A DNA stretch of 64,000 nucleotides from Clostridia bacterium (GCA_017461545.1 JAFTXP010000021.1:3624-67623), one strand, 5' to 3'. Shown: positions 13,411 through 43,429, counted from the stretch's first letter. The notes: generated from the letters alone by a model not told the origin. Numbers and translations: made by a program.

Positions 13411-16131
13411 GTGGGAATTTTGGAAAAACTTTTACTTGTTGACGGAAACAGCATAATGAACAGAGCCTTTTACGGCACCCAAAGCAGTTTTATGAAAAAT
13501 GCGGAGGGACTTTTTACCGGTGCACTTTTCGGCTTTATGAATATTCTTCTTAAGTATTTAGACGAAGAGAAGCCGGAGTATGTTGCTGTTGCGTTTGATG
13601 TAAAGGCTCCCACTTTCAGACATAAGGCTTATGACGGTTATAAAGCTACCAGAAAAGGTATGCCAAATGAGCTTGCCATGCAGATGCCTATTATAAAGCA
13701 GATTTTATGCGCTATGAATATTTCGTGCATTGAGATTCCCGGATACGAGGCCGATGATATCATAGGTACGTATTCGAGACTTGCTGCCGAAAAGGGTATC
13801 GAAAGCGTGATAGTGACAGGAGACAAAGATTCACTGCAGCTTGTAAACGAATTGACAATTGTAAAGCTTCCCGTCACAAAGCAGGGCACTACCACGACAG
13901 ATACTATAGATATAGAAGCTTTTAAAAACAAGTACGGCGGACTTATGCCTATCAGACTGATTGACCTTAAGGCTCTTATGGGAGACTCGTCCGATAATAT
14001 TCCCGGAGTTCCGGGCGTGGGAGAGAAAACCGCGGTCAGCTTGCTTGCGGAGTACGGCAGCCTTGATGGAGTATATGCACATGTAGAGAACATAAAAAAG
14101 CCTGCTCTTAAGAAAAAAATAGAAGAAAACAAAGAGTCTGCGTATATGAGCTATGATTTGGCGACTATCATGCTTACCGTGCCGGTTGAGAAAACGGTTG
14201 AGGAGCTTGCAAAGGGTGAGTGGGACAAACCGGCTCTGATTAAGCTTCTTACGATGCTTGAGTTTAAGAGCATAATAAAAAAGATGAAGCTCGAAGGCGT
14301 ACCGGTGTCTGATGATAGTGAAAAAGATGCCGACGAAAAAGGCGCGGTCGTTATGTCGCTGTTTAATGTTCTTGCAGGCGAGGGTATTGATATAAATAAC
14401 ATAGAAAACGAAGCTTCTGCGGCGCCGCTTCCGGCGGTTGTTCCTAAAAATACTGTTTTCGTCATGTTTTATGAGGATCTTAAGGAGTTAAAGGCTACGG
14501 TTGAAAAAAATCCTTCCGAGGTATATATCGAATGTGACTTCAGCGGGAAATATCCCGTTGAGATGAGAGTAAATTTTGACAATGACGACACGGTGTTTTC
14601 GGTTGCGTTTTCGATACCTGACACGGAGATCAATTTCATAGATATAATGAAGCCTGTTTTTGAGAATTCCGATATCAAAAAGATTGCTTTCGACAGTAAA
14701 CCGATTATTTTGTGGCTGATGACAAACGGCTGCGGATTTGAGGGACTTTGGTGTGATTTGTCCATTGCCGCATATCTTACGGATTCGACGAGAAAAAATG
14801 ATAATTTTTCTGATGTTTGCAGACTTTTTACGGGCGAAGAGCATGTCGGCATAGAGTATATGCCGCTTGCATCTGAGATGGCTGTCAGACGGCTTGAGAA
14901 GGACGGCATGACCGCTCTTTACAGAAATATAGAATTGCCTCTTGTTCCGATACTTGCATCTTTTGAGTATGAAGGTTTCAAAGTGTCCGAAAAGGTTTTG
15001 AAATCAGAAGGTGTGCTTCTCGAAAAGAGAATAGACGAACTCACTGCGCAGATATATGAGATAGCAGGACGCACGTTTAATATAAATTCGCCTAAACAGC
15101 TCGGAGAGGTATTGTTTGATGAGATGAAGCTTCCGGGCGGAAAGAAAACCAAAACCGGCTACAAGACAGGTCAGGATGTGCTGGAGGCAATCTCTGACGA
15201 GTCGCCGATTATTCCTCTTGTTCTGGAGTACAGACAGAATGTGAAGCTTAAATCCACGTATATTGACGGATTGATTGCGGTTATAGATAAAGAAACCGGA
15301 CTCGTTCATTCGAGTTTTAATCAGACTGTTACTGCGACAGGCCGACTGAGCAGTACGGAGCCGAATCTGCAGAATATTCCGGTAAGACATGAGCTCGGAA
15401 AAAAGATAAGATATGCGTTTGTGCCCAGAAAAGAAAATCATATACTTGTAGATGCCGACTATTCACAGATAGAGCTGAGGGTACTTGCTGAGATGTCCGG
15501 TGACTACTCGATGAAAAAAGCATTTAAAGACGGTGCCGACATACATGCGATCACCGCATCACAGGTGAATAATGTTCCGTTATCGGATGTAACGCCTGCC
15601 ATGCGAAGTGCGGCAAAGGCGGTAAATTTCGGCATTGTTTACGGCATAAGCGAATTCGGATTGGCAAAAGATATCGGAATATCAAGATTTGAAGCTAAAA
15701 AATATATTAACGGATATTTTGAAAAATATCCCGGCGTAAAAGCTTATATGGACAGCGCTGTTGTATTTGCAAAAGAGCACGGTTTTGCTGAGTCACTGCT
15801 CGGAAGAAGAAGATATCTGCCGGAGCTTACTTCTTCAAAGTACCCGATCAGGTCTTTCGGAGAACGTGTTGCAATGAATATGCCCATACAGGGCACAGCA
15901 GCGGATATCATGAAAATTGCTATGATAAAAGTTTACAGCGAGATTAAAAAAAGAGGTCTCAGGGCGAAACTTATATTGCAGGTTCACGACGAACTTCTGA
16001 TAGATGCACCGTTGGAGGAAAAAGACGAGGTCATGTCACTTCTGCGTGAGTGTATGGAAAATGCATTTGAAATGGAAGTTCCGCTGCCTGTTTCGGTTTC
16101 ATACGGAAGCAGCTGGGCTGAATGTAAGTAA
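13411..16131 (+). CDS. polA: DNA polymerase I
   Basis: Motifs LLVDGNS..NRAFY, EADDIIGT, GDSSDNIPGVPGVGEKTA, TATGRLSSTEPNLQNIP, DYSQIELR, KAVNFGIVYG and LQVHDEL. Confidence 0.97.
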   Translation: MGILEKLLLVDGNSIMNRAFYGTQSSFMKNAEGLFTGALFGFMNILLKYLDEEKPEYVAVAFDVKAPTFRHKAYDGYKATRKGMPNELAMQMPIIKQILCAMNISCIEIPGYEADDIIGTYSRLAAEKGIESVIVTGDKDSLQLVNELTIVKLPVTKQGTTTTDTIDIEAFKNKYGGLMPIRLIDLKALMGDSSDNIPGVPGVGEKTAVSLLAEYGSLDGVYAHVENIKKPALKKKIEENKESAYMSYDLATIMLTVPVEKTVEELAKGEWDKPALIKLLTMLEFKSIIKKMKLEGVPVSDDSEKDADEKGAVVMSLFNVLAGEGIDINNIENEASAAPLPAVVPKNTVFVMFYEDLKELKATVEKNPSEVYIECDFSGKYPVEMRVNFDNDDTVFSVAFSIPDTEINFIDIMKPVFENSDIKKIAFDSKPIILWLMTNGCGFEGLWCDLSIAAYLTDSTRKNDNFSDVCRLFTGEEHVGIEYMPLASEMAVRRLEKDGMTALYRNIELPLVPILASFEYEGFKVSEKVLKSEGVLLEKRIDELTAQIYEIAGRTFNINSPKQLGEVLFDEMKLPGGKKTKTGYKTGQDVLEAISDESPIIPLVLEYRQNVKLKSTYIDGLIAVIDKETGLVHSSFNQTVTATGRLSSTEPNLQNIPVRHELGKKIRYAFVPRKENHILVDADYSQIELRVLAEMSGDYSMKKAFKDGADIHAITASQVNNVPLSDVTPAMRSAAKAVNFGIVYGISEFGLAKDIGISRFEAKKYINGYFEKYPGVKAYMDSAVVFAKEHGFAESLLGRRRYLPELTSSKYPIRSFGERVAMNMPIQGTAADIMKIAMIKVYSEIKKRGLRAKLILQVHDELLIDAPLEEKDEVMSLLRECMENAFEMEVPLPVSVSYGSSWAECK

Positions 16132-16170
16132 AAGATTTTGAAAATATTTTGACTGTCGGAGGAAATATAT

Positions 16171-16767
16171 ATGAAAGTTTTGGGTGTCACAGGCGGTACG
16201 GGTACGGGCAAGTCTACTGTTTGTAAAATATTGCAGGATAACGGCGCAAAGATAATTGACGCGGACAAGATTGCAAACGCTCTGCAGAAAAAAGGTACGG
16301 TTGCATTTGATGAGATTATAGAATATTTCGGAGAGGGTATTCTGGACACGGATGGCGAGCTCAACCGCAGGATTTTGGGTGCTCTTGTGTTTAATGACAG
16401 GAATGCGCTTAATGCACTTAATGCCATAGTCCACAAACATGTCTCGATAGAGATTAAAAAGCGTGTCGAAGAGTATCGCAGAGAGGGCGCGGAACTTGTT
16501 GTTCTTGATGTTCCGATTCCGATAGAGGACGGATTTTTTGATACTGCCGAGCAGGTGTGGGCGGTTGTTGCAAACGATGATTTGAGAATTGAGAGGTTGC
16601 AGTTGAGGAACGGTCTTTCGGAAAATGAAGCGGTGGCAAGAATCGGTTCACAGCTTTCTAACAGCGAGTATTCGGAGCTTGCCGATGTTACTATCGATAA
16701 CGAAGGATCTTATGAAGAGCTTAAACAGCTTGTATTATACGAACTCAGAAGATTTAAAGAGTATTGA
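16171..16767 (+). CDS. coaE: Dephospho-CoA kinase
   Basis: GVTGGTGTGKSTV P-loop, IDADKIA and follows polA. Confidence 0.93.
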   Translation: MKVLGVTGGTGTGKSTVCKILQDNGAKIIDADKIANALQKKGTVAFDEIIEYFGEGILDTDGELNRRILGALVFNDRNALNALNAIVHKHVSIEIKKRVEEYRREGAELVVLDVPIPIEDGFFDTAEQVWAVVANDDLRIERLQLRNGLSENEAVARIGSQLSNSEYSELADVTIDNEGSYEELKQLVLYELRRFKEY

Positions 16768-16793
16768 TAAAATTAAAAATGATTAAGTGCGGT

Positions 16794-16831
16794 GGCGGCG
16801 AAACCCTTTTGCGATGAGAGGTTTCGCCGCC
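16794..16831 (+). terminator. GC-rich hairpin after coaE
   Basis: ggcggcgaaacc / ggtttcgccgcc. Confidence 0.6.
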
Positions 16832-16934
16832 GATTTTAATGCGGCTTGCCGCGTGTTTTATAAATTCTTCATTTGGGAATAATTAAATTGATTAAAAAGA
16901 TTTAATAAAACTGATTTGAAATGAGGGATAAAAT

Positions 16935-17369
16935 ATGTGGCTCGGAATATTGATAGCAGTTGCGTCGGGCGCGTTGATGAGTGTGCAGGGAGTGTTTAAT
17001 ACGGAGCTTACAAAGCAGTCGGGAATATGGATGGCTGCCGGATTTGTTCAGCTGAGCGGTTTTGCTCTGTGTCTTTTGATGTGGCTTTTTTCGGGTAGAC
17101 AGGGAAGCGTCGGAGAGCTGTTTTCTGTAAATAATAAGTATATGTTGCTGAGCGGTGTAATAGGAGCGTTAATAACTTACACCGTAATAAAAAGTATTGA
17201 ACTTTCGAGCCCTGCAAAGGCTATAATGGTTATAGTGACTGCACAGCTGCTGGTGGCTTATCTTATTGAATTGTTCGGACTGTTCGGTGCGGAAAAACAG
17301 CCGTTTGAATTTAAAAAACTGTGTGGAATAATACTTGCAATAATCGGTTTTGTGATATTTAAATTGTAA
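16935..17369 (+). CDS. DMT family (YdcZ-like) membrane transporter
   Basis: 144 aa, five hydrophobic segments, SGALMSVQGVFN and IELFGLFG. Confidence 0.8.
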   Translation: MWLGILIAVASGALMSVQGVFNTELTKQSGIWMAAGFVQLSGFALCLLMWLFSGRQGSVGELFSVNNKYMLLSGVIGALITYTVIKSIELSSPAKAIMVIVTAQLLVAYLIELFGLFGAEKQPFEFKKLCGIILAIIGFVIFKL

Positions 17370-17473
17370 AGCTCGGTATATACAAATCAGGAAAAATGTG
17401 TTAAAATGTCCAAGCGTGTCGAATGGTGACATGTAATAGATGAAAAATAATATACGTTCTTTTGGAGGAATAA

Positions 17474-18547: not shown

Positions 18548-18599
18548 AAGTTGATTTAGTAAATTTGAAAATTTGTAGTACATAGAAAGGACAATAATT

Positions 18600-19220: not shown

Positions 19221-19320
19221 TTTTTGTATCAAAATTTATGATGCAGAGTTTTTAAAGCCGCAGCAAATGTTGCGGCTTTTGTGCGGTTATTCGACTTGTA
19301 ATTTACGCATAGGAGATTAA

Positions 19321-20529: not shown

Positions 20530-20562
20530 AAAATTTCATTGAATAACATGAGATAAATAAAG

Positions 20563-20597
20563 AGCAACTTGCAACACAACGTAGTTTGCAAGTTGCT
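20563..20597. terminator. Bidirectional terminator between the hydrolase and the tRNAs
   Basis: agcaacttgcaa / ttgcaagttgct with flanking A and T runs. Confidence 0.7.
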
Positions 20598-20604
20598 TTT
20601 TTTA

Positions 20605-20677
20605 AGCCTCTAATCGGAATCGAACCGATGACCTCATCCTTACCATGGATGCGCTCTACCTACTGAGCTATGGAGGC
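20605..20677 (-). tRNA. tRNA-Thr(GGT)
   Basis: Cloverleaf GCCTCCATAGCTCAGTAGGTAGAGC-CATCC ATGGTAA GGATG-...GTTCGATT. One C.A mismatch in the acceptor stem; CCA not encoded. Confidence 0.92.
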
Positions 20678-20693
20678 ATATGATTTTGTAAAA

Positions 20694-20764
20694 AGCGGGT
20701 GAGGGGAATCGAACCCCCGTAATCGGCTTGGGAAGCCGGAATTCTGCCATTGAACTACACCCGC
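20694..20764 (-). tRNA. tRNA-Gly(CCC)
   Basis: GCGGGTGTAGTTCAATGGCAGAAT...CGGC TTCCCAA GCCG...GGGGGTTCGATTCCCCTCACCCGC. Confidence 0.93.
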
Positions 20765-20817
20765 AAATCCTGTTGTCAACGTGCATGAATAAGCGGTCAG
20801 TATCGAGCAACAGCGGT

Positions 20818-20846: not shown

Positions 20847-20850
20847 GTAT

Positions 20851-21489: not shown

Positions 21490-24400
21490 ATGCCACTTGA
21501 TAAATCTGTAAAAAAAGTTCTTGTAATCGGTTCAGGTCCGATTGTAATCGGACAGGCTGCCGAGTTTGACTATGCAGGTACTCAGTGTTGCCGCGCGATG
21601 CAGGAGGATGGAATCGAGATTGTTCTTATCAACTCAAATCCTGCTACCATAATGACTGACAGCGCTATGGCAGATAAGATATATATTGAACCGTTAAATC
21701 TTGTCACAATAAGAAGAATTATCGAACAGGAAAAGCCTGACAGTGTTCTTGCCGGATTCGGCGGACAGACAGGTCTTACAATGTGTATGCAGCTTGCAAA
21801 AGAAGGCTTCTTTGATGCGCACGGTGTAAGACTTTTGGGAGTTTCGCCTGAGACGATAGACAAGGCAGAGGACAGACAGATGTTCAAAGACACAATGGAG
21901 AGCATCGGTCAGCCCTGTATTCCGTCAAAGGTTGTTACAACAGTAGAGGATGCCGTTGAGTTTACAAAGACAATCGGTCTCCCTGTTATCATACGACCTG
22001 CATTCACACTCGGAGGAAGCGGCGGCGGTATCGCATATACCGACGAAGAACTTCACGAAATCTGTGAAAGAGGTCTTAAGCTTTCCCCTATCACACAGGT
22101 ACTCGTTGAAAAATGTATTTCAGGTTGGAAAGAAATTGAATTTGAGGTTATCCGCGACCATGTAGGAAATGCTATTACTGTTTGTTCTATGGAAAACCTT
22201 GACCCGGTAGGCGTTCACACGGGTGACAGTATCGTTGTAGCTCCTGCTGTTACACTTTCAAATGTTGAATTTTCTATGCTCAGAAATGCGGCTCTTGATA
22301 TCGTTACAGCTCTCGGAGTAGAGGGCGCTTGTAACTGCCAGTTTGCTCTGAAGCCCGATTCATTTGAGTATGCGGTTATCGAGGTTAACCCCCGTGTTTC
22401 AAGATCTTCTGCGCTTGCTTCGAAAGCTACCGGTTATCCGATTGCCAAGGTTGCCGCAAAAATTGCTCTCGGATACAACCTTGACGAAATTAAAAATGCC
22501 GTTACAGGTACAACATATGCAGCATTTGAACCTACGATAGACTATCTCTGTCTTAAGTTCCCGAAGTGGCCTTTTGACAAGTTTGTATATGCTGACAGAA
22601 GAATCGGTACACAGATGAAGGCTACCGGCGAGGTAATGTCTATCGCAGACAATTTTGAAGCGGCTCTTATTAAGGCTGTCCGCGGTGCTGAGATTTCAGT
22701 TGACACAATGAATATGCCTAAGATGAAAGAGTTTAGCGACGACGAGCTGGTTGCGCTTATTTCAAAAGTGACAGACGAAAGAATTTTCGCTGTATACGAG
22801 CTTATAAAGAGAGGTACACCCATTGAAAAGCTTTATGAACTTACAATGATTGATCCTTGGTTCCTCGCAAAATTCAGAAACCTTGCAGAGTATGAGAAGT
22901 CCATCGAAAACTGTGAGCTTTCATACGAGCAGTATTTGCAGGGTAAAAAGTACGGCTATACAAATAAGGCTCTCGAAAGACTTTCAGGACATAAATGCGA
23001 ACACAGACTTACACCTGTATACAAAATGGTTGACACTTGTGCATCCGAGTTCAGCGCAGGTACTCCTTATTTCTACGGAATATTTGACGACCCGAAATGC
23101 GGCTCGCACAATGACGCTCTTGACTTTGTAAACAAGGGCGAAAAGCAGAAAGTAATGGTTATCGGTTCCGGTCCTATCAGAATCGGACAGGGTATAGAGT
23201 TTGACTACGCAAGCGTACACTGCGTACATGCTCTCAGAAAAATGGGTTACGAGACGATTATCGTAAACAACAACCCCGAAACCGTTTCAACAGACTTTGA
23301 CACAGGTGACAGACTTTATTTTGAGCCTGTCTGCGAAGAGGATGTTTTAAATATTATTGATATAGAGAAGCCTATCGGTGTAGTTGTTGCATTCGGCGGT
23401 CAGACTGCTATTAAACTCAACAAGGTGCTTGAAGGCCACGGAGTAAAGCTTATTGGTTCGTCTGCTGACACTATCGATATGGCTGAGGACAGAGAGCGTT
23501 TTGAAAACCTTCTCGAAAGCCTCAATGTTCTCAGACCGAAGGGACACACGGTTCTTAATGTAGAGGATGCTCTCAAGGCTGCAAATGACCTCACATACCC
23601 CGTGCTTATGCGTCCGTCATACGTTTTGGGCGGTCAGAATATGATTATTGCTACATCAGACGATGAAATTGTGGAGTACATGCACATTATTCTCAGCTCG
23701 AACAAGGACAACCCGGTGCTTATTGACAAATACATCAGCGGCATCGAGTGTGAGCTTGATGCAATTTGCGACGGCGATGATATACTCATTCCCGGAATTA
23801 TGGAGCATGTAGAGCGTACAGGTATTCATTCGGGTGACAGTATTGCGGTATATCCCGCACAGCACATCGAAGATGAAATGCGCGCCGTAATCATTGATAC
23901 AACGGAAAGAATCTGCCGTGGACTTAACGCAGTAGGTCTTGTAAATATTCAGTATATCGTAAAAGGAAACGAGCTCTATGTAATTGAAGTTAACCCCCGT
24001 GCTTCGAGAACAGTTCCTTATATCAGTAAAGTAACGGGTGTTCCGATGTGTGACCTTGCAACAGCGACAAGCCTCGGAGCTAAACTGAAAGACCTCGGAT
24101 ACGGTACGGGTATTTACAAAGAATCGCCTTACGTTGCAATCAAAGTTCCTGTGTTCTCGTTTGAGAAGCTTACCGACGTTGATACACAGCTCGGACCTGA
24201 AATGAAATCTACTGGAGAAGTTCTCGGTATAGGAAATACTTTTGAGGAAGCTCTATACAAAGGTCTTATCTCTTCCGGTGCAACAATGACAAAGAAGGGC
24301 GGAGTATTTATCTCTGTCAGAAATCTTGACAAGTTTGAGATCGGAGCAATCGCGAAGAAATTCAGCTCACTCGGTATGGATATTTATTCAACAGCCGGCA

Positions 24401-25542
24401 CCGCAGAAGTTCTCCGCAAAATAGGTCTTACAGTTACTGATATCGGTAAAATTCATGAAGGCCACGGCACAAACGTAATTGACCTTCTTGAGAGCGGAAA
24501 GATAAGCTACGTAATTTCAACTTCGGCAAAGGGCAGAGATCCGAAGCGTGACAGCGTTAAAATCCGCAGAAAAGCAAGCTCCTTGGGAATTCCGTGTCTC
24601 ACTGCAATCGATACTGCAAATGCGCTGGCAGACAGCCTTATGAGCCGTTACTCACTTTCAAATATCGAGCTTGTAGACATAGCGCATATGAGAAATGAAA
24701 AGCTCACGCTTAAGTTTACTAAAATGCAGAGCAGTGCGAATGACTACATTTTTCTCAACTGTATGGAAAACACAATAGCATCACCTGAGTTTTTGTCGAT
24801 TTACCTTTCTGAAAGACGTACGGGCGTAGGCGGTGACGGTGTTGTTCTTATTGAAAATTCCGATGTTGCCGATGCAAAGATGCGTATGTTCAACCTCGAC
24901 GGAAGTGAAGGAAAGATGGCGGGTAACGCTATCAGATGTGTCGCAAAATATCTTTTCGACAATAAAATTGTTGAAAAAGACCTTATGACAATCGAAACTC
25001 TCAGCGGTGTTAAGAAATGTAAAGTATTCACGATGAACGGTATTGTATCAAAGGTAAAGGTTGATATGGACAAGGTAATCCTTGATGCGAAAAAGGTGCC
25101 CACTACGATAAATGCTGACACTGTTGTCAATTATCCCGTAAAAATCGGCGAAAACGACTACAACATAAACTGTATATCGGTCGGTAACCCGCATTGCGTA
25201 ACATTCGTTGACTATGTTGACGCAGTAGATGTAAAGAAAATCGGTCCCGACTTTGAGTTCTGCGAATTGTTCCCCGAAAGAATAAATGCGGAATTTGTTC
25301 AGATAATCGACAAACACACCCTCAAAATGCGCGCTTGGGAGCGCGGCTCCGGAGAGACTCTTGCATGCGGTACAGGTGCTTGTGCTGCTGTTGTTGCAGC
25401 TTGTCTTAACGGTTTCTGCGAAAAGGGCAGTGACGTTAAAGTAATAACTCTCGGCGGCGAGCTTGTTGTCAACTATAACGACAAGCGTGTAACTCTCACA
25501 GGTCCTGCCGAAAAGGTTTACGACGGCGAAGTTGTTATCTGA
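21490..25542 (+). CDS. carB: Carbamoyl-phosphate synthase large subunit fused to a C-terminal DapF-like (diaminopimelate epimerase fold) domain
   Basis: Two ATP-grasp halves (GSGPIVIGQAAEFDY, GSGPIRIGQGIEFDY) and an MGS domain. From about 24700: FTKMQSSANDY, FNLDGSEGKMAGN, SVGNPHCV and WERGSGETLACGTGAC. Confidence 0.95.
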   Translation: MPLDKSVKKVLVIGSGPIVIGQAAEFDYAGTQCCRAMQEDGIEIVLINSNPATIMTDSAMADKIYIEPLNLVTIRRIIEQEKPDSVLAGFGGQTGLTMCMQLAKEGFFDAHGVRLLGVSPETIDKAEDRQMFKDTMESIGQPCIPSKVVTTVEDAVEFTKTIGLPVIIRPAFTLGGSGGGIAYTDEELHEICERGLKLSPITQVLVEKCISGWKEIEFEVIRDHVGNAITVCSMENLDPVGVHTGDSIVVAPAVTLSNVEFSMLRNAALDIVTALGVEGACNCQFALKPDSFEYAVIEVNPRVSRSSALASKATGYPIAKVAAKIALGYNLDEIKNAVTGTTYAAFEPTIDYLCLKFPKWPFDKFVYADRRIGTQMKATGEVMSIADNFEAALIKAVRGAEISVDTMNMPKMKEFSDDELVALISKVTDERIFAVYELIKRGTPIEKLYELTMIDPWFLAKFRNLAEYEKSIENCELSYEQYLQGKKYGYTNKALERLSGHKCEHRLTPVYKMVDTCASEFSAGTPYFYGIFDDPKCGSHNDALDFVNKGEKQKVMVIGSGPIRIGQGIEFDYASVHCVHALRKMGYETIIVNNNPETVSTDFDTGDRLYFEPVCEEDVLNIIDIEKPIGVVVAFGGQTAIKLNKVLEGHGVKLIGSSADTIDMAEDRERFENLLESLNVLRPKGHTVLNVEDALKAANDLTYPVLMRPSYVLGGQNMIIATSDDEIVEYMHIILSSNKDNPVLIDKYISGIECELDAICDGDDILIPGIMEHVERTGIHSGDSIAVYPAQHIEDEMRAVIIDTTERICRGLNAVGLVNIQYIVKGNELYVIEVNPRASRTVPYISKVTGVPMCDLATATSLGAKLKDLGYGTGIYKESPYVAIKVPVFSFEKLTDVDTQLGPEMKSTGEVLGIGNTFEEALYKGLISSGATMTKKGGVFISVRNLDKFEIGAIAKKFSSLGMDIYSTAGTAEVLRKIGLTVTDIGKIHEGHGTNVIDLLESGKISYVISTSAKGRDPKRDSVKIRRKASSLGIPCLTAIDTANALADSLMSRYSLSNIELVDIAHMRNEKLTLKFTKMQSSANDYIFLNCMENTIASPEFLSIYLSERRTGVGGDGVVLIENSDVADAKMRMFNLDGSEGKMAGNAIRCVAKYLFDNKIVEKDLMTIETLSGVKKCKVFTMNGIVSKVKVDMDKVILDAKKVPTTINADTVVNYPVKIGENDYNINCISVGNPHCVTFVDYVDAVDVKKIGPDFEFCELFPERINAEFVQIIDKHTLKMRAWERGSGETLACGTGACAAVVAACLNGFCEKGSDVKVITLGGELVVNYNDKRVTLTGPAEKVYDGEVVI

Positions 25543-27719: not shown

Positions 27720-27722
27720 GCT

Positions 27723-28536: not shown

Positions 28537-30723
28537 ATGATTTACTTAAGAAAATGCGGATATAAAAATTCGGAAATTTTTAAACGAATAATATCTTTTA
28601 TGTTATGCTTGGTAATGACCTGTTTATATACGGTCAGCGGCAGGTATAATTTTACTGCGAATTCACAGACAGTTTATTCTATCGGATATGTTTATTCGGC
28701 AAATTATGGGTATCTTAATGTAAGAGATAAAGCGGGTACCGTTTCATCCACTGTAATAGATCAGCTTGACAACGGATATCAGGTGTCTGTTTTAGGTAAA
28801 TATGATGCGCCTGACGGTGCGCTTTGGTATCGTGTTTCATATTTTAAAGGCCGGACATTAAAGTACGGTTATGTTCACAGTATTAATATCAGATTTGTTA
28901 CTGCTGCTGATGATCCGGAATTTGAAGCATACCTTGAATCGCAGAATTTTCCGGAAACATACAGACAATATCTCCGAGTTCTTCATAAAATAAAGCCCGA
29001 TTGGGTGTTCAAAGCTTTTCATACTAATTTACCGTGGTCAGAGGTATATGCCGCTGAAACGGAAGACGGTCGGAGCTGTATAGAAAGCTCTGTTATATCA
29101 TCGTGGAAATCTCTTGAATTATATGATTGGGCTAATGATACATATGCTAATGTGGGCGGAAGCGGATGGACGCAGGCTTCGGATGAAATTGTAGCTTTTT
29201 ATCTTGATCCCCGAAACTTTCTAAATGACCAGCAAATGTTTCAATTTGAATTGATAGAGTATAATCCGGCAAGCCATACGGAATTGGCTGTAGAAACTAT
29301 ACTGAAAGGTACATTTATGTATAAGACGGTGTTGTACGAGGAGAAAATTCCTGCTGATTCTGCGAGCGGGACTGCTGCCGGGACAAAAACAGTTACATAT
29401 GCGCAGGCATTTATTCAGGTCGCAAAGGAACTTGACGTTAGTCCGTGTATGCTTGCAAGCCGGGTAAGACAGGAACAGGGCACAGCCGGCACAAATAAGC
29501 TTATTTCGGGAACTGTTCCGGGATACGAAGGATATTATAACTATTTCAATATAGGTGCAACAGGCAACAATGCACAAGATGTCCTTATCAACGGTCTTAA
29601 AGAGGCCGTAAGCGAGGGATGGAATTCGCCTTATAAAGCGCTTGTGGGCGGAGCAAGAAAGGTATGTAATACACATATAAAAAAAGGTCAGGACACTTTG
29701 TATCTGCAAAAGTTTGATGTAGAAGACTCGTATTACGGATTGTACTGGCATCAGTATATGCAAAATATAAGAGCTGCATCGCATGAGGGTGTTACGGTGA
29801 GAAATTCATACGCACAGTGTGATATTTTAAGCAGCGCTTTTGAATTTAAGATTCCTGTGTTTCTTGATATGCCGGAGTATGCCTGTAAGCTGCCGTCAGA
29901 AGACAGAAATCCTAACTATAAACTTTCAAATATTACTGTAAAAGGTTATTCATTGAGCCCGTCTTTTAAGACGGATACGGTTGCGTATACGCTGGTGGTT
30001 CCTTATACGGCATCAACGGTAGAAATAAGCGCGGTTCCGTATGTTTCAAAAGCTTCTGTCAGCGGAACGGGAACTGTGTCTCTGAAGGAAGGTAACAATG
30101 CAATAAAAATTATATGTACAGCCGAAAATGAGACCTTCAGAGAATATATAATAAATATAAAGAGAGAAGCTTCTCCGAACGCAACGGTTACGGCGAAACC
30201 TACTGCTACATCCGGTTCAAAGCCGACAAGTACGGCAACTGCTACAGCTACTGCAAAGCCTTCCACGACACAGACACAAAAACCGGTGACTTCTCATAAT
30301 ATAAGCCAAGTTTACACTGTTAACAACGGTTCTTATATTACAGGTGTTTCAACAAATACTAAGGCTGAATCATTTATAAATAAGATAAAGATCACAAACG
30401 GAACCGTGTTATTGCAGGACAAAGACGGTGAAGTCCTTGAAATGAGTTCTAAGGTTGCTACGGGGCAAAAAATTATTGTTAAAGATATTGATGGTAATAC
30501 TATTAAAGAATATTCCATTGTTATTTACGGAGATGTTACAGGAGACGGGCAGATAAATGCACTTGATTATGTTTATCTTAAAAGACACTTATGGGGAATA
30601 TCCGAATTGACCGGATTATACAAAAATTCTGCAGATGTGTCTCCTTCAAAAGGGGCTATCGATGCGCTGGATTTTGTATATATGAAGCGTCATCTTTGGG
30701 GAATTGCTGATATAGTACAATAA
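28537..30723 (+). CDS. Secreted SH3b / glucosaminidase-like peptidoglycan hydrolase with a cadherin-like beta-sandwich, Thr/Pro linker and C-terminal dockerin
   Basis: SH3b (LNVRDKAG...WYRVSY...GYVHS); YYNYFNIGA...GWNSPYKAL.GGA; YMQNI; duplicated dockerin repeats GDVTGDGQINALDYVYLKRHLWG and ADV....AIDALDFVYMKRHLWG. Confidence 0.82.
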   Translation: MIYLRKCGYKNSEIFKRIISFMLCLVMTCLYTVSGRYNFTANSQTVYSIGYVYSANYGYLNVRDKAGTVSSTVIDQLDNGYQVSVLGKYDAPDGALWYRVSYFKGRTLKYGYVHSINIRFVTAADDPEFEAYLESQNFPETYRQYLRVLHKIKPDWVFKAFHTNLPWSEVYAAETEDGRSCIESSVISSWKSLELYDWANDTYANVGGSGWTQASDEIVAFYLDPRNFLNDQQMFQFELIEYNPASHTELAVETILKGTFMYKTVLYEEKIPADSASGTAAGTKTVTYAQAFIQVAKELDVSPCMLASRVRQEQGTAGTNKLISGTVPGYEGYYNYFNIGATGNNAQDVLINGLKEAVSEGWNSPYKALVGGARKVCNTHIKKGQDTLYLQKFDVEDSYYGLYWHQYMQNIRAASHEGVTVRNSYAQCDILSSAFEFKIPVFLDMPEYACKLPSEDRNPNYKLSNITVKGYSLSPSFKTDTVAYTLVVPYTASTVEISAVPYVSKASVSGTGTVSLKEGNNAIKIICTAENETFREYIINIKREASPNATVTAKPTATSGSKPTSTATATATAKPSTTQTQKPVTSHNISQVYTVNNGSYITGVSTNTKAESFINKIKITNGTVLLQDKDGEVLEMSSKVATGQKIIVKDIDGNTIKEYSIVIYGDVTGDGQINALDYVYLKRHLWGISELTGLYKNSADVSPSKGAIDALDFVYMKRHLWGIADIVQ

Positions 30724-30742
30724 TTGTGAGGTTGATATTTAC

Positions 30743-32395
30743 ATGATGAAATTAAATCAAAGTATTAATAGATTGATTTGTATATTATTTGCGACAGTTT
30801 TCATTTTTGCATCTGCCGTATCGGATTCTTTTTTGATTTCATCAAATGCTGCAGATGAGGATGCTACGATAGTTGTAGCGCTTGACAGAAATACATTGAA
30901 TGTAGGAGATACGTTTAATGTTAAAGTAACTTACGAAAGTAATCTGGAATCAGGTTATCTCATGTGGGAACTTACATATGACAGTTCTCTTGTTTCGCGT
31001 GAAGGTTCTGCCGGAAAAATAATAGAAACCGAGTGGTTTGATGATACTTCTGCAAATACAAAAAATGTTACTAAGTCATATACTTTTACTGCAAAGGCAG
31101 TCGGGAAAGTGACTTTCTCAATAAATGCTACAAGTTACAAGCTTGTTCCTGATGATAACGGCGATGAAATGAGCATTCTTACGATGGGAGCATCTGCTAC
31201 CATTATGGATGTCGGTTCAAGTGATGCAAATCTGAAGTCACTTGTTGTAGACGGAGGAGAACTTGTTCCGTCATTTTCTCCCGATATTACACAATACACA
31301 GTTACTGTTCCTTTTGATATAGCTGCTTTGTATGTTTATCCTTCAACAAGTGATTCGAGAGCTACACATACGGTTGAGGGTGACGAGTTTTTGAATGTCG
31401 GAACAAAAACAAGGACTGTGGTTGTTACGGCACAGGATGGTACGGTAAAAAAATATGTAATTACAATAACACGTTTGGCGAAGCCTACGGAAGCGCCGAC
31501 GGCAACCCCTCCTGCAACAGAACGTCCGACGGAAACTGCAAAACCTTCGGTGACACCTACACAGGTATCTACGCAGACTTCTTCTCCGACAGTACCTGCG
31601 ACGACACCTCCGGTTGAGAATGATATTATTTCAGTCGATGGGAAAGAATATGAAATTGTTAATATCAACGAGAGCGTTGTGCTTCCCGAAGGATTTGAAA
31701 AGACAGATGTAGAATACAATGGTAAGAAATATTCCGGCGCAAAAGGTATTTCAAAAAATATCACACTTTTGTATCTTGAGTCAGAGGAATTCACAGGTCT
31801 TTTTGTGTATGATGATGGTAATAACGAATTTTTCAAACATGTTGATATAACTGTAAAATCAGGTATTTACACCGTTATGAAACTTCTTGACGGCGAAGCA
31901 GGGTTGAATTTGAATAAAACACAGATTTCTATCGGAGATGTTTTAGTGGATGCTTACGAGATCGATCCGTCTAACAGTGAGTTTTACATTGTAAGAGCCA
32001 TGAATTGGAACGGTGATACCAACTACTATTCATACGATACGGTCGAAAACACGATGCAGAGATATGCGGAGATAAAATTCATGTCAGGTTCTTCAGACGG
32101 TAATGATACAGATAATACTGCAACGCCTGTGCCGACGTCGACAGCGAGTCAGTCCTCTGATATGACAGTAAAACGCAGTTCGGAAAATTCAAAGTCGCAT
32201 AAGATTCTAATTATACTTGCATTTTCATCGTGTGTAATATGTTTGATTCTTGCGGCGTTTTTGATTTATTTTGCATTGAAAGAAAGAAAAACTTGCAAGA
32301 TTATGAGTTCCCCGTATGAAGAGAGCAATGATAAACTCATGGAAATTGAAAAAGAAGAAGAGACGGAACAGATAGAACATACAGAAGAAAACTAA
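30743..32395 (+). CDS. Membrane-anchored surface protein with a cohesin-like N-terminal domain, cadherin-like beta-sandwich and PT-rich linker
   Basis: Signal peptide; ALDRNTLNVGDTFNVKV...WELTYDSSLV; DANLKSL.V.GGEL.PSFSPDITQYTVTVP; PT linker; C-terminal TM helix followed by a charged tail. Confidence 0.7.
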   Translation: MMKLNQSINRLICILFATVFIFASAVSDSFLISSNAADEDATIVVALDRNTLNVGDTFNVKVTYESNLESGYLMWELTYDSSLVSREGSAGKIIETEWFDDTSANTKNVTKSYTFTAKAVGKVTFSINATSYKLVPDDNGDEMSILTMGASATIMDVGSSDANLKSLVVDGGELVPSFSPDITQYTVTVPFDIAALYVYPSTSDSRATHTVEGDEFLNVGTKTRTVVVTAQDGTVKKYVITITRLAKPTEAPTATPPATERPTETAKPSVTPTQVSTQTSSPTVPATTPPVENDIISVDGKEYEIVNINESVVLPEGFEKTDVEYNGKKYSGAKGISKNITLLYLESEEFTGLFVYDDGNNEFFKHVDITVKSGIYTVMKLLDGEAGLNLNKTQISIGDVLVDAYEIDPSNSEFYIVRAMNWNGDTNYYSYDTVENTMQRYAEIKFMSGSSDGNDTDNTATPVPTSTASQSSDMTVKRSSENSKSHKILIILAFSSCVICLILAAFLIYFALKERKTCKIMSSPYEESNDKLMEIEKEEETEQIEHTEEN

Positions 32396-36888: not shown

Positions 36889-36951
36889 GCATAAAATGTA
36901 ATATAAGACATAAATATATACCGTCACAGTTTTACTGCAGGCGGTATTTTT

Positions 36952-37401: not shown

Positions 37402-37420
37402 TGTAAAAGCATAAAATAAT

Positions 37421-37456
37421 GCCCGTTTCACAGGTTCGCAACTTTGTGAAACGGGC
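37421..37456. terminator. Bidirectional hairpin between convergent genes
   Basis: gcccgtttcaca / tgtgaaacgggc. Confidence 0.7.
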
Positions 37457-37464
37457 TGTTTTTG

Positions 37465-38997: not shown

Positions 38998-39038
38998 GTG
39001 TGAAATTCTCCTTAAATATTAGAATAAAAATGAGTAGA

Positions 39039-39680
39039 TCAAAGTTTTCTGAATACTCCGACTACTTTACCCAGAATAAGCAATTCTTTTGTATAGATGG
39101 CTTTCATGTATCTGTTTTCGGGCTGTAATCTGAAACAATCTCTTTCTTTGTAGAAAGTCTTTACCGTTGCTTCGTCTTCTATAAGAGCAACAACGATGTC
39201 ACCGTCTCGTGCGGTAGACTGTCTCTGTACCAGAATATAATCACCGTCCAAAATTCCGGCCTCTATCATACTTTCTCCGCTGACATGAAGCATAAAAGCT
39301 TCTCCGGAAAGAAAATCCCCGGGAACAGGGAACGTTCTCTCTACATTTTCTACGGCCAATATCGGCATACCTGCCGTTACTTTTCCGATAACAGGGACAT
39401 TTACCGAATCCTGGTCAATATCTTGCGTAAAAAAAGGATTTACCGCAGACTTTGTACCTGTAAGTCTTATACCGCGTGTTTTTGAATCATCTTTTTCTAT
39501 ATATCCTTTTTTCTCCAAAGCTGCTAAATGTGTAAATACGGTAGATGAAGAAGTGAGCCCTACTGCTGCACAAATCTCACGTATCGAGGGCGGATACCCG
39601 TTTCTTCTTATACTGTCTTCTATAAAATCAAGAATCTCCTGCTGTTTCGGTGAGGGTAGTGTTGTAGGTTTCCGTGCCAT
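39039..39680 (-). CDS. lexA: SOS repressor LexA
   Basis: GYPPSIREIC wHTH, Ala-Gly cleavage site (VTAG), Ser (GESM) and Lys (TVK) dyad. Start moved to the ATG at 39680, after GAGGT. Confidence 0.96.
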   Translation of the reverse strand: MARKPTTLPSPKQQEILDFIEDSIRRNGYPPSIREICAAVGLTSSSTVFTHLAALEKKGYIEKDDSKTRGIRLTGTKSAVNPFFTQDIDQDSVNVPVIGKVTAGMPILAVENVERTFPVPGDFLSGEAFMLHVSGESMIEAGILDGDYILVQRQSTARDGDIVVALIEDEATVKTFYKERDCFRLQPENRYMKAIYTKELLILGKVVGVFRKL

Positions 39681-39744
39681 AAAATACCTCCGTATATTTA
39701 AAAATTTTGTTTGGGTAAATTGTACCACAAATAAAAATAAATGC

Positions 39745-39756
39745 AAACTTTTGTTC
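39745..39756 (-). promoter_or_regulatory. Putative LexA (SOS) box
   Basis: Minus strand GAAC-AAAA-GTTT, about 65 nt upstream of lexA; fits the Firmicute GAAC-N4-GTTY consensus. Confidence 0.6.
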
Positions 39757-39911
39757 TCTGAAAAAATAGTTAAAAATATTTTTATGGTTTTTCCATATTA
39801 TTAATATAATAAAAAAATTTATATACGAAATAATAATAAAGCAAAATATAATTTAACATATAGTTAAACGGATAAATTTTGCAGTTAATTAAAAACGAGA
39901 AGGTGTTTTAT

Positions 39912-40136
39912 ATGTGTAAAAAGATATTAGATAATGTAATGTGTGTCAGCCGTAAAACCTGCAGAATGTATTCATGTAAATCAAAAATTGAAGGTATGTT
40001 GCTCGGTGTTATGATCGGCTCGATAGGTGGTATTGCATTAGGAATGTTTGTGAATTCAGATGCGGGAAAAAAGATGCGCAACAAAATGATGTGCAATTGT
40101 GTGAACGGAGAGTACAGTACACCTAATGATAATTAA
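39912..40136 (+). CDS. Small membrane protein, YtxH-like
   Basis: GMLLGVMIGSIGGIALGMF...GKKMRNK; AAGGT RBS. Confidence 0.55.
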   Translation: MCKKILDNVMCVSRKTCRMYSCKSKIEGMLLGVMIGSIGGIALGMFVNSDAGKKMRNKMMCNCVNGEYSTPNDN

Positions 40137-40170
40137 TCGATACGTAACAGATTATTATTTCTAAATATGC

Positions 40171-40220
40171 AAGGAGATTCTGCAGGATCGGATATAGGAC
40201 CTATATTGCAGAATCTCCTT
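40171..40220. repeat. Intergenic inverted repeat (14-bp arms)
   Basis: aaggagattctgca / tgcagaatctcctt. Confidence 0.7.
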
Positions 40221-40294
40221 TGTATATTCCGGGAAATAATATAAAAATCGACATGGGAAAAGTTTGGAAATGATATAATAGTTAAAAATAAAAA

Positions 40295-40319
40295 ATCCCG
40301 AACACATTGTGTTCGGGAT
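40295..40319 (-). terminator. Terminator of tRNA-Leu
   Basis: atcccgaacac / gtgttcgggat followed by a T run on the minus strand. Confidence 0.75.
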
Positions 40320-40322
40320 AAA

Positions 40323-40405
40323 TGCGACCGACGAGACTTGAACTCGTACGGGGGTTGCCCACACGCCCCTCAAACGTGCGCGTCTGCCAATTCCGCCACG
40401 GTCGC
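40323..40405 (-). tRNA. tRNA-Leu(GAG)
   Basis: GCGACCGTGGCGGAATTGGCAGACGC-CACGT TTGAGGG GCGTG-variable arm-GAGTTCAAGTCTC-GTCGGTCGC. Confidence 0.95.
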
Positions 40406-40436
40406 ATGGCATACTGTTTTCGCAACAGCAAGACAG

Positions 40437-40465
40437 ATTATACTCATATAAACTTAACCTGTCAA
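40437..40465 (-). promoter_or_regulatory. Consensus sigma-A promoter of tRNA-Leu
   Basis: TTGACA-17 bp-TATAAT on the minus strand. Confidence 0.8.
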
Positions 40466-40520
40466 GCGTTTTTTTACATAATTTTTGAAAAAATCCAAAT
40501 TTAATAGTATTGAAAGGCAG

Positions 40521-42242
40521 ATGAGAAAAATTTTTCAGATAGGATCTGATTATTTATACGGTTTAAATACAAAACAGGCTGACGCGGCAAATCATTTATA
40601 CGGGCCTGCGCTTGTTTTAGCAGGTCCCGGAAGCGGAAAGACATCAGTTATAACGGCAAGAGCAGTCAGTCTGATTGAGAAGCGGAGAGTAAAACCATGC
40701 AGGCTGCTCACAGTAACTTTCAGCAGAGCCGCAGCAGAAGAGATGAGAAAAAGATATATAAAAAAAGTCGGAGAAGAACGCATAACAGACTCAGATGTTC
40801 CCGAGTATTGTACATTACACAGCTTTTGTTTAAAGTCGATAAAGTATTGTAAAGCATATGGTGAGCATGAAAGAAAAATATTGTGCGGCAGTGCAGAGAA
40901 GCATAAATTGATATCGGATATCTGGAACAGGATAAATGCGTCGGAAAACAATATACTTACTTTTGAATATCTTGAATTAATATCAAATACCATAAGCAAA
41001 ATAAAATGTTTCAGCGGTACAGAAAAAGAAGCTGATTTGCGTAAAGATATACAGATAAGAAATTTTGATGAAATATTTTACGAGTATGAAAAATATAAGC
41101 AGGAAAAATATTTAATTGATTTTGATGATATGTTATCGGAAACGGCGCTGTATCTTGCGGAAGATAAGATGTTTAAGGCTCTGATATCAGAGAAATATGA
41201 TTTCGTTCAGGTTGATGAAGGTCAGGATTTGTCTTATTTGCAGATAGAGATAATAAAATCTGTAGGTTCGCATGGAAATGTTTTTATGGTTGCCGATGAT
41301 GATCAGGGAATATACGGATTCAGAGGCGCTGATGTCAAATCTCTTAAACGTTATGAGGAAGCATTCTGCGGTTGCAAACGGTATTATCTTGAGCAAAATT
41401 ACAGGTCCTGCGGTGAAATTGTTTCGACAGCATCGTCTTTTATCAGAAAAAATTCAGACAGATACGAAAAAAATATTTTTACACTTAATAGTGCAGGTGA
41501 AAAGATAGAATTAATCAGGACTCGCGACATTGTATCACAGGCAAGGTTCGCCGCCGAAATTGCACTTGCAAATTCGGCGGCGGGCTTAACCTGCGGTATT
41601 CTTTACCGGAAAAACATGTCGGCTTTAATGCCCTTGCTGCTGCTTTACGAGCTCTCACGCCGCAACGGCATAAAAGCCTCCTTCTGCATATCCGGAGACT
41701 TCATTCACCCCTGTGGATATGAAATAGTAAAAGAATACCTGGAAAAAATACTGCAACATGAGCGTCATTCACGATTCATATGCAAAAGTCCGTCTGATAT
41801 TTTCCGTGATATGGAGAGATGCGGCAAAATTGATGAATACAGGAATTTGTGCGCGCTGAAAGGACAAAGCGCGAAAGAGACTGAATATATTCTGTCTTTT
41901 ACCAAAGTCATGGGCAAAACATTGAAAAAATACGGACAAATAACGGAATTTCTCGAACAAATCAGAACTAATGAGTCGGAAAGTAATATTTTTTTCAGCA
42001 CGGTGCATTCATCGAAAGGGCTGGAATATGACTGTGTTGTAATTATCGATGCTTCGGAGGATGAATTCCCTAAAAGGACAGCTGTTGACAATGAAGAGAT
42101 TGAAGAAGAACGGCGTCTTTTTTATGTTGCGATGACAAGAGCCAAAAAGAAACTTTATATTGTAACTCCTGACAAATGCGGAAGAATAAAATGCAGTCCG
42201 GGTATATTTTTTTGTGAAACAGCATCGGTAATAAACGCATAA
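40521..42242 (+). CDS. UvrD/PcrA-like SF1 helicase, short form
   Basis: Motifs AGPGSGKT, VDEGQD, DDDQGIYGFRGA, LEQNYRS, STVHSSKGLEYD and EERRLFYVAMTRAK. Start at the ATG at 40521, after GAAAGG. Confidence 0.88.
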   Translation: MRKIFQIGSDYLYGLNTKQADAANHLYGPALVLAGPGSGKTSVITARAVSLIEKRRVKPCRLLTVTFSRAAAEEMRKRYIKKVGEERITDSDVPEYCTLHSFCLKSIKYCKAYGEHERKILCGSAEKHKLISDIWNRINASENNILTFEYLELISNTISKIKCFSGTEKEADLRKDIQIRNFDEIFYEYEKYKQEKYLIDFDDMLSETALYLAEDKMFKALISEKYDFVQVDEGQDLSYLQIEIIKSVGSHGNVFMVADDDQGIYGFRGADVKSLKRYEEAFCGCKRYYLEQNYRSCGEIVSTASSFIRKNSDRYEKNIFTLNSAGEKIELIRTRDIVSQARFAAEIALANSAAGLTCGILYRKNMSALMPLLLLYELSRRNGIKASFCISGDFIHPCGYEIVKEYLEKILQHERHSRFICKSPSDIFRDMERCGKIDEYRNLCALKGQSAKETEYILSFTKVMGKTLKKYGQITEFLEQIRTNESESNIFFSTVHSSKGLEYDCVVIIDASEDEFPKRTAVDNEEIEEERRLFYVAMTRAKKKLYIVTPDKCGRIKCSPGIFFCETASVINA

Positions 42243-42277
42243 AATGGTTATGTAAATCAGATTATACGGTCGTGTTA

Positions 42278-43429
42278 ATGACAGTGAATAACAGTTTTGT
42301 GACAAAGAAATTTTTAGGTTCCAATACAGGTGAAGGTTTTAAGGGGTTTTACGGAGATCTGCTCTCGGGGAGCGGATTCGGATACCGTAATCAGAGTATT
42401 TATATATTAAAAGGAGGCCCGGGAACAGGAAAATCAACCTTTATAAAAAAAGTTGCGGCGATGCTTGAAAAGTCTGACTGTGATGCGGAACTGCTTCTTT
42501 GCTCAGGAGACGTAAAAAGTCTGGACGGTGTTTCAAGTAAAACAGGAGGAATAACAGTTGTTGACGGAACAAATCCTCATTGTATCGAGCCGGTTTGTCC
42601 CGGAGTACGCGAAAGCATTGTAAATCTCGGTGCTTTCTGGAACCGTGAAGTCCTGAAGAAATATTCTGATGAGATTGAGAACTTATCGGAGAAAAAGGCG
42701 ATTATGTATAAGAAGGCATATCATTATTTGGCTGCGGCAAATGAAATCAATAAGGAACGGTCGGGCATTCTTAACCGGTGTATTGACAGAAGAAAGATGA
42801 AGTTGTACGGCGAATCTTTTGCAGAAGAGTTGATTCCCAAGAAGGATGATGCAGAAGTATTGGGTGTAAAAAGAAGAGCTTTTTCAACTGCTGTGACTTC
42901 TGAAGGAGTATTCGGTGCAGTTCCGGGAATGAGTGACGGTGAACTTCGCGGATATAAAATCTATTGCATCAATTCCGAACTTGGAATTTCATGTGAACCG
43001 ATACTTGATGAAGTCGCTGAAAAAGCGGTGAGCAGCGGTTATGATGTTGATTTGTATTATTGCGGATTTGACGCCGGAAAACTTGAACACATCGTAATAC
43101 CGGAATTGAATATTGCTATTGTTACTTCAAATGAATATCACCCGTACGATAAACAAAACATAGAACAGGAGATATTGCCCGAGGGTTTCTTAAAGAGTTC
43201 TGTTACAGTCAGTTCGGAGAGATGTATGGATTACGACATAGGATATGCAAAAATTCGTTTTGACGAACTTCTTGAAAGAGCATTCAGGGCGTTGCAGAAA
43301 GCTTCCGGGTATCATCATTCAATGGAGGATTATTATATAGAATCAATGGATTTTGCCTCCCTCAATGATTTTGCCGATTATGTTCTATGCGATATGGCAA
43401 AATTGATACATGAAAATGTTTTAGGATAA
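42278..43429 (+). CDS. P-loop ATPase (PRK06851-like clostridial family)
   Basis: Motifs LKGGPGTGKST, LLCSGD..SLDG and DGTNPHCIEP. The stop codon lies immediately before the right junction site. Confidence 0.75.
   Translation: MTVNNSFVTKKFLGSNTGEGFKGFYGDLLSGSGFGYRNQSIYILKGGPGTGKSTFIKKVAAMLEKSDCDAELLLCSGDVKSLDGVSSKTGGITVVDGTNPHCIEPVCPGVRESIVNLGAFWNREVLKKYSDEIENLSEKKAIMYKKAYHYLAAANEINKERSGILNRCIDRRKMKLYGESFAEELIPKKDDAEVLGVKRRAFSTAVTSEGVFGAVPGMSDGELRGYKIYCINSELGISCEPILDEVAEKAVSSGYDVDLYYCGFDAGKLEHIVIPELNIAIVTSNEYHPYDKQNIEQEILPEGFLKSSVTVSSERCMDYDIGYAKIRFDELLERAFRALQKASGYHHSMEDYYIESMDFASLNDFADYVLCDMAKLIHENVLG

Follow-up and report, generated by a model that had tools for sequence, protein, structure and literature searches.

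Why does a chromosome keep a gene in two opposite-facing pieces, tens of kilobases apart? The question is raised by a stretch of 64,000 nucleotides from a Clostridia bacterium, a gut spore-former (G000:C14:3624-67623; hereafter the window), where a second paralog of murA is present as an N-terminal and a C-terminal half of opposite orientation, ~30.5 kb apart. The source genome, G000, comprises 1.37 Mb in 27 contigs and is 69% complete. The following explanations were considered: the halves could be rejoined by site-specific inversion during sporulation, they could be toggled reversibly in growing cells, they could never be rejoined as DNA, or the gene could have been broken by a recent accident or a misassembly. 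The split, inverted layout is almost certainly the resident, replicated state, as had been proposed in a preliminary description of the window and as GC skew, gene orientation, the relatives and the skew at third codon positions (GC3 skew) all agree. On balance, we also consider it likely that murA is reassembled through an inversion for which a large serine recombinase (LSR) is responsible, the mother cell being the probable setting.

Together the pieces make up a whole gene. When the halves are joined in silico at their shared core, they yield an uninterrupted MurA of 430 aa that includes GAKNS, PGGCTIGARP and TDMQ, as well as positions that we take to be the equivalents of the Cys115 loop, Lys22, Arg120 and Asp305 of E. 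coli MurA. By its sequence, the joined protein hence qualifies as a full-length member of the MurA family. The C-half itself matches Pfam EPSP_synthase at positions 112-413 and NCBIfam murA at positions 112-414. The break falls between AHPGG and C in the catalytic-Cys115 loop, and the AHPGGC codons are retained on both halves. In the split state the open frame of the N-half continues into an unrelated tail of 53 codons, down to position 12798. A separate, complete housekeeping murA is located on contig C16 of the same genome.

Both halves are under purifying selection. In comparison with G001, the nearest relative, which belongs to the same genus, the ratio of nonsynonymous to synonymous substitution rates (dN/dS) was 0.045 for the N-half and 0.040 for the C-half (polA, 0.06; lon, 0.03), with dS saturated. 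Pseudogene debris was ruled out by these values, 0.04 for each half. Since the break falls at a Cys, a split intein was considered too, but rejected: both halves keep the AHPGGC codons as DNA repeats, the tail of the N-half consists of non-conserved residues, and nothing like a terminal His-Asn precedes the C-half.

The next question is whether the split state is the one in which the chromosome is normally replicated. The GC skew does not change sign at either junction, being +0.147 to the left of the invertible segment, +0.140 within it and +0.107 to the right; negative values were observed in 2 of 30 1-kb intervals inside the segment and in 2 of 32 outside. The skew is likewise continuous in G001, G015 and G017, where both junctions are on one contig. 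In G001 the order and orientation of the genes from lon through the dcw genes are the same, so that the split inverted layout is shared although dS is at least 1.0 for every gene compared with G000. Among the LSR-carrying relatives, none has the block inverted and murA intact. Thus, neither of the two findings that the preliminary description had named as refuting was obtained.

A more direct test is provided by the halves themselves. For 35 murA halves from 18 genomes, the GC3 skew of the coding strand was compared with the orientation of the half relative to the local G-rich strand. Each of the eight split genomes of the order has a single half that is anti-oriented to this strand, namely the N-half (G000, G001, G015, G019, G027) or the C-half (G012, G017, G023). 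The eight anti-oriented halves have a GC3 skew of -0.21 to -0.60 (the N-half of G000, at -0.60, resembles other lagging-strand genes), whereas the 27 co-oriented ones, including both halves of the genomes with direct repeats, range from -0.14 to +0.35, the two groups being completely separated (Mann-Whitney p=1.2e-5). Thus, each half bears the GC3 skew of its strand in the split state, and hence has been replicated in the split orientation for a long time. The existence of both N-half-flipped and C-half-flipped forms implies that flipping occurred more than once. In the family with the flipped C-half (f2: G012, G017, G023; L019-L025), where the C-half opposes the leading strand, the N-half junction directly abuts polA.

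Gene orientation points in the same direction. The preliminary description had counted 18 genes on the plus strand and 4 on the minus strand inside the segment, about 9:2 to the left and 12:3 to the right; with non-overlapping open reading frames (ORFs) of at least 100 aa we obtained 17:4, 8:2 and 11:3, respectively, and the bias stands. The four on the minus strand within the segment comprise the murA N-half and genes for a GntR-aminotransferase, a protein of unknown function (510 aa) and LexA. Such a bias is ordinary for G000, as 78.4% of its ORFs are on the G-rich strand. If the segment were inverted, only 4 of the 21 genes would be on the leading strand, which is improbable (P=1.2e-8); hence the segment is not inverted. 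Three tRNA genes on the minus strand (tRNA-Thr, tRNA-Gly, tRNA-Leu) had been mentioned as a counterpoint, and all of them were found there. They encode minor isoacceptors (Thr-GGT, Gly-CCC, Leu-GAG) and run against the gene flow. The same anti-orientation is seen in G001; thus it is an old feature and no argument against the resident split state.

The exact 13-bp repeat noted earlier was recovered in opposite orientations at the two junctions, with 0 chance matches expected. One boundary had to be moved: the span previously given for the block, 13411-43429, covers only the stretch from polA to an ATPase gene, whereas the positions of the crossover centres (Table 1) place the minus-strand murA N-half inside the invertible segment, which is therefore larger.

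A recent accidental inversion or a misjoin at a short inverted repeat, with murA decaying thereafter, would be in keeping with a fragmented, incomplete metagenome-type assembly and with the inverted 13-bp repeat at its junctions. This explanation is refuted by the absence of a skew flip and the fit of the GC3 skew to the split-state strands, by independent assemblies and by conservation of the break point, which is common to 25 genomes. Both G000 junctions are crossed with 0 mismatches, at 20-36x depth, by Logan contigs (k-mer assemblies) from three runs, and the N-half junction of G015 is crossed in four metagenomes, each of a different study. The low dN/dS and the identical layout in the congener at saturated dS also argue against it, and its probability is negligible.

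Of the 41 relatives searched, 8, from 5 genera and 4 families, have this murA paralog split at the identical codon, and every junction contig in them shows the split form. One LSR orthogroup has exactly one member in each of the 8 split genomes and none in the remaining 38 of the 46 genomes of the order. Its members share 40-63% identity, are 450-610 aa long and contain the Resolvase, Recombinase and Zn_ribbon_recom domains. In a class-wide sample of 399 genomes we found 17 more carriers of this LSR, and in all 17 murA is split, at residues 101-120; none of 10 control genomes has a split murA. From this co-occurrence, the LSR is presumably dedicated to the murA sites. The LSR gene of G000 is located outside the window, and in at least six genomes the gene adjoins a conserved nucleotidyltransferase gene of the tRNA-modification type rather than being in a mobile element.

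Other recombinases were less informative. Tyrosine recombinases occur in every genome, split or not, and the other LSRs (e.g. the one on G000:C19) are not orthologous across the carriers. The G000:C19 enzyme (560-573 aa) is a second LSR, whose orthogroup differs and is not represented in all carriers; some other integrated or intervening element could be its source.

In the murA tree all split genes fall outside the housekeeping clade (99% support), together with the intact second paralog of LSR-negative spore formers. A single origin of the split is not supported, as the tree requires at least 2-3 changes. The intact ortholog of the split gene directly adjoins mraY-ftsW/spoVE.

The structure of the sites makes it possible to predict the reaction. 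Both murA junctions contain sites of the attachment (att) type with a central GG, as do all the sites compared, with the caveat that the same GG is part of a Gly codon and is thus also under coding constraint. In the window the central dinucleotides have opposite polarity; hence the predicted reaction is inversion and not excision. The left site holds a palindrome (Table 1). When the reciprocal site was composed in 17 genomes from the left arm of the C-junction, GG and the right arm of the N-junction, its arms matched at 15.5 of 24 dyad positions, compared with 8.6 +/- 1.9 after shuffling of the arms; attachment sites of large serine integrases characteristically have such imperfect dyad symmetry about a non-palindromic central dinucleotide common to both partners. 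An outer motif (GTGNCAAT-like) is situated 5 bp further from the centre in the attP-type arms than in the murA (attB-type) arms: over 17 genomes, a peak at +5 bp was observed in all four comparisons of B arms with P arms (4.9-5.8 of 11; background ~2.7), whereas P-vs-P and B-vs-B comparisons peak at 0. In large serine integrases the outer motif of attB, bound by the zinc-ribbon domain, is known to be shifted 5 bp toward the centre relative to attP (PMC3783163). The site sequences thus indicate that rejoined murA would have attB geometry, the reciprocal product that of attP, and the resident junctions those of attL and attR.

It is known that attL and attR are inert to the integrase alone and require a directionality factor (PMC5025042), which would explain the stability of the split state. 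An LSR of C. difficile has been shown on a plasmid to invert DNA between inverted sites (PMC5025042).

Outside the order of the window, the halves that share a contig are directly oriented and 2-12 kb apart (G166, G218, G294, G319, G072, G233). In family f30 the intervening sequence is host DNA including polA and coaE, while in G072 it consists of gatD-murT only, and in G233 it includes the LSR itself. With polA and coaE between the halves, rejoining would be lethal to a growing cell. Flipping the murA N-half of f30 in place, along with its site, would give the layout of the window. The minimal system of G233 comprises the murA N-half, an XRE-type regulator gene on the minus strand, the LSR and a C-half with three stop codons, and may be a decaying copy.

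One of these genomes provides some evidence of the reaction. In the isolate run of G166 (X5), the k-mer contigs break exactly at both att sites, and a 54-nt contig of depth 42 links the right end of the segment with its left end through the common CAGGTG core, which is exactly the predicted attP junction. Recombination at such sites thus probably occurs in vivo. The 12.4-kb segment has a depth of 90, compared with 81 and 66 for its flanks. A tandem duplication or circles retained in growing cells would fit, since loss of polA and coaE would be lethal.

When would the joined state exist? SpoIVA is present in all 8 carriers; 19 genomes of the order are SpoIVA-negative, and none of them contains the system. 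Genera that do not sporulate have a single murA, and two or more are usual in spore formers. The spacer between the N-half and the divergent polA contains, upstream of the N-half, a sigma-K-type promoter-like motif (consensus KCACM / GCATANNNTA; PMC3416734). Searched as AC-N15-18-CATAnnnTA, such a motif precedes the N-half in 6 of 16 genomes by a strict definition and in 9 of 16 by a loose one, the genome baselines being 0.6% and 1.4%, respectively; of the 11 genus groups, 7 have it. The LSR of C. difficile is constitutive; its cell specificity comes from a directionality factor of the mother cell (PMC5025042). The joined state would most likely belong to the non-replicating mother cell, as suggested indirectly by the spore-former carriers, the sigma-K-type motif and the attL/attR architecture.

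Alternatively, the inversion could be a reversible phase variation of growing cells, in which the LSR, with or without a partner, toggles a second MurA (e.g. in response to cell-wall stress or fosfomycin-like compounds) and sporulation is not involved. An inversion loses no DNA, an LSR alone recombines attP with attB, also as an inversion (PMC5025042), and an ordinary isolate run of G166 is rich in recombination products. On the other hand, at the contig level only the split form is seen in seven metagenome assemblies of two species, the skew implies that the halves have been in the split orientation for essentially all the replicating time, and essential polA and coaE are located between the halves in the direct-repeat relatives. 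With the carriers limited to spore formers and the sigma-K-type motif present, we consider phase variation rather unlikely.

Several observations weigh against inversion in the mother cell. Among the assembled contigs of the inversion-type genomes there is no joined attB or attP molecule, and the junctions are unbroken at 11-44x. In the G166 run no attB contig was found, though attP is present; attP without attB indicates a circle or a tandem duplication and does not demonstrate a rebuilt murA. The LSR gene is unlinked to the att sites, in a genome that is 69% complete. For 4 of the 8 split genomes of the order the halves are on different contigs, and their relative orientation was deduced from the local skew. 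No directionality factor was identified: among the small ORFs preceding the LSR, conservation does not extend beyond the genus, and none matches a known family. The sigma-K-like copy in G000 has one mismatch in the -10 element and a short spacer, and the motif does not occur upstream of the N-half in G017, G192, G269 and four f30 genomes. Finally, the C-half of G000 is preceded by a GTG with a possible ribosome-binding site, so that separate translation is possible, for G000 alone.

The first and the last of these points also favour the explanation that the halves are never rejoined as DNA and form a MurA of two polypeptides or have other functions, the att-like sites and the LSR being leftovers of an old integration; in addition, the N-half has its own promoter region and start codon. 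In this case, however, the co-occurrence with the LSR across many families and the conserved attB/attP geometry would be left unexplained. Most C-halves lack a start codon between the upstream stop codon and the core (in G001, G015 and G017 the core is preceded by no in-frame start codon), the break is in the catalytic Cys115 loop, with both halves keeping the AHPGGC codons as DNA sites, and G166 does contain the predicted attP junction. This explanation is therefore quite improbable.

As for the small ORFs, the one in G000 encodes a Cys-rich protein of 74 aa immediately upstream of the LSR gene, with a slight overlap, and has no Pfam match. Its G001 counterpart is 68 aa long (...ELCxxCERxxYCxPxNCxxCExxTxCTYVYExF), and in other families different small ORFs are found at this place. 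The 74-aa protein may be a partner or the directionality factor of the LSR.

Returning to inversion in the mother cell, we infer the inversion itself, its timing and the role of this murA in cortex synthesis, and propose the following scheme. A sporulation-associated murA paralog would be stored permanently as two halves at attL/attR-type LSR sites. In the terminally differentiated mother cell, the LSR together with a directionality factor would recombine attL with attR and invert the 30.5-kb segment, producing intact murA (attB) at one end and the palindromic attP at the other. The extra MurA would supply peptidoglycan precursors for the spore cortex, and polA, carB and mutL would be turned against replication at no cost. 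Once the directionality factor is gone, the LSR alone would drive attP and attB back to the split state. The inversion type would have arisen from an excision-type murA-intervening system when one half of the gene flipped. Taken as a whole, that is, a domesticated LSR acting as a developmental inversion latch in the mother cell, reset by the LSR alone, derived from an excision-type ancestor and present in at least four families and in two versions, this scheme is tentative, and we give it slightly less than an even chance.

The DNA that would be turned over consists of host housekeeping genes, not of a prophage, even a defective one, or another mobile element; family scans of the window proteins revealed no recombinase anywhere in the window and no phage genes in the invertible segment. 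The gene order is murA N-half (-), polA, coaE, ydcZ, PHO4, PhoU-like, hydrolase, tRNA-Thr/Gly (-), carB-dapF fusion, GntR-aminotransferase (-), pdxS, pdxT, dockerin protein, cadherin-like protein, mutL, miaA, unknown (513 aa), TIGR04086 membrane protein, unknown (510 aa; -), lexA (-), tRNA-Leu (-), UvrD-like helicase and PRK06851-type ATPase.

The last two were considered as the recombinase and rejected, neither being one. This pair adjoins the C-half junction across the order, but the ATPase gene is inverted in G027 and there is no ATPase match in G017; a UvrD-like gene also adjoins the N-half junction in G269. They may be left from an ancestral element or take part in the rearrangement.

Some other proteins of the window deserve mention. 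The 1350-aa carbamoyl-phosphate synthase large chain is fused to a C-terminal diaminopimelate-epimerase domain; the fusion is 95% identical in G001 and has no adjacent carA. Two large secreted proteins contain SH3, cadherin-like and type I dockerin domains, whose presence suggests a fibre degrader of the cellulosome type; they evolve fast, with 58-65% identity to G001 vs ~85% for their neighbours. Just downstream of the murA C-half and an MBL-fold (metallo-beta-lactamase) hydrolase, there is a protein with Schlafen AlbA_2 and HATPase_c_4 domains, which has no match in the fetched G001 region.

Table 1. Coordinates of the murA halves, their recombination sites and other features. Positions are those in the window unless a contig or locus is given.
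Feature	Position	Strand	Description
dcw genes	1..6881	+	spoVD-like penicillin-binding protein, murE, murF, mraY, ftsW/spoVE; ancestral neighbourhood of the murA paralog
attL-type site	12939..12996	-	End of murA N-half; central GG in murA sense (CC at 12967-12968, + strand)
Palindrome in attL-type site	12956..12979		CTGCACATCC-TCCG-GGATGTGCAG
murA N-half	12967..13307	-	Codons 1 to ~114, ending ...GEVTTAHPGG; Pfam EPSP_synthase 2-116
13-bp repeat, left copy	12967..12979	-	CTGCACATCCCGG
Invertible segment	12969..43455	.	~30.5 kb of housekeeping DNA
sigma-K-type promoter-like motif	13350..13375	-	TCACA-N13-GCATATTATG
tRNA-Thr (GGT), tRNA-Gly (CCC)	20605..20764	-	
carB-dapF fusion	21490..25542		
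Dockerin and cadherin-like proteins	28537..32395		
tRNA-Leu (GAG)	40322..40406	-	
UvrD-like helicase (585 aa) and PRK06851-type ATPase (385 aa)	40485..43429	+	Adjoin the murA C-half junction
attR-type site	43428..43485	+	Start of murA C-half; central GG at 43456-43457; polarity opposite to left site
13-bp repeat, right copy	43445..43457	+	CTGCACATCCCGG
murA C-half	43456..44409	+	From Gly-Gly-Cys115, CTIGARPIDIH..., to stop codon; codons ~112 to 430
Schlafen AlbA_2 protein	45723..47036		
LSR gene of G000	G000:C27:55792-57621		
Cys-rich ORF of G000	G000:C27:55608-55832		
Second LSR of G000	G000:C19:64964-65329		
Anti-oriented tRNA genes of G001	L013:11319-11401; L014:8349-8504		
att sites of G166	L046 (G166:C1:1945001-1965000), 4223-4252 and 16571-16600		
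Minimal system of G233	L047 (G233:C21:41001-50000), 2390-6459		

If the proposed reaction takes place, it would be the first natural LSR-driven developmental inversion in endospore formers. The known repairs of sporulation genes (sigK, spsM, gerE, yabG) remove a dispensable element, whereas here an essential block would turn over: as the two sites face each other, the same class of enzyme would have to turn over essential genes. Terminal differentiation would then let bacteria use chromosome inversions as one-way gene switches, and murA, the gene for the first committed step of peptidoglycan synthesis, would join the developmentally assembled genes. A natural pair of LSR and att sites that inverts DNA between attL and attR would also be useful to genome engineers. 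For annotation, the murA halves in such genomes should not be taken for pseudogenes, nor the layout for a misassembly.

The closest known parallel is the skin element in sigK, with the recombinase SpoIVCA in B. subtilis and, for skinCd of C. difficile, the LSR CD1231 and the directionality factor CD1234 (PMC5025042). There, too, a mother-cell gene is split by attL/attR sites of an LSR, and a precise in-frame rejoining is predicted for murA. The C. difficile scheme, where a constitutive LSR is timed by the directionality factor, suits the unlinked, domesticated LSR of the murA system. In contrast, skin is of prophage origin, has its own recombinase and is excised as a circle from direct sites, whereas the murA sites are inverted, the 30.5 kb between them are essential and the LSR is on another contig. 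Similarly, in SPbeta in spsM (SprA/SprB) and in gin in gerE of B. cereus an LSR and a directionality factor rebuild a mother-cell gene (PMC4191935, PMC5499854, PMC5595907), and gin demonstrates that the intervening DNA need not be a prophage, as in the murA segment. Unlike the latter, both are excisions, with a self-encoded recombinase and no essential genes.

The searchable literature thus holds excision-type systems in sigK, spsM, gerE and yabG and the nif inversions of a cyanobacterium (PMC11249958), and nothing in it deals with murA as a target or with an inversion linked to sporulation. In that cyanobacterium, Calothrix sp. NIES-4101, fragments of nifH and nifB on opposite strands are put together by site-specific inversion in cells that have terminally differentiated and no longer divide (PMC11249958). 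The Calothrix rearrangements take place in heterocysts, include several excisions along with two inversions, have the recombinase genes beside the repeats and were demonstrated experimentally, whereas the murA inversion is deduced.

The excision-type murA segments of other Clostridia have the same paralog, break codon, LSR orthogroup and att geometry. Their halves are in direct orientation, which leads to excision, whereas in the order of the window one half is flipped, with inversion as the result; the flipped half is the C-half in one family and the N-half in the three others. Finally, Hin, Gin and the RecV flagellar switch of C. difficile reversibly flip short promoter or gene segments between near-identical inverted repeats in growing cells. 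These are site-specific inversions too, and they alter gene expression; the murA system differs from them in its large serine recombinase, in hybrid attL/attR sites with only 13 bp of identity and dissimilar arms, in the length of the segment, 30.5 kb, and in that a coding sequence would be rebuilt.

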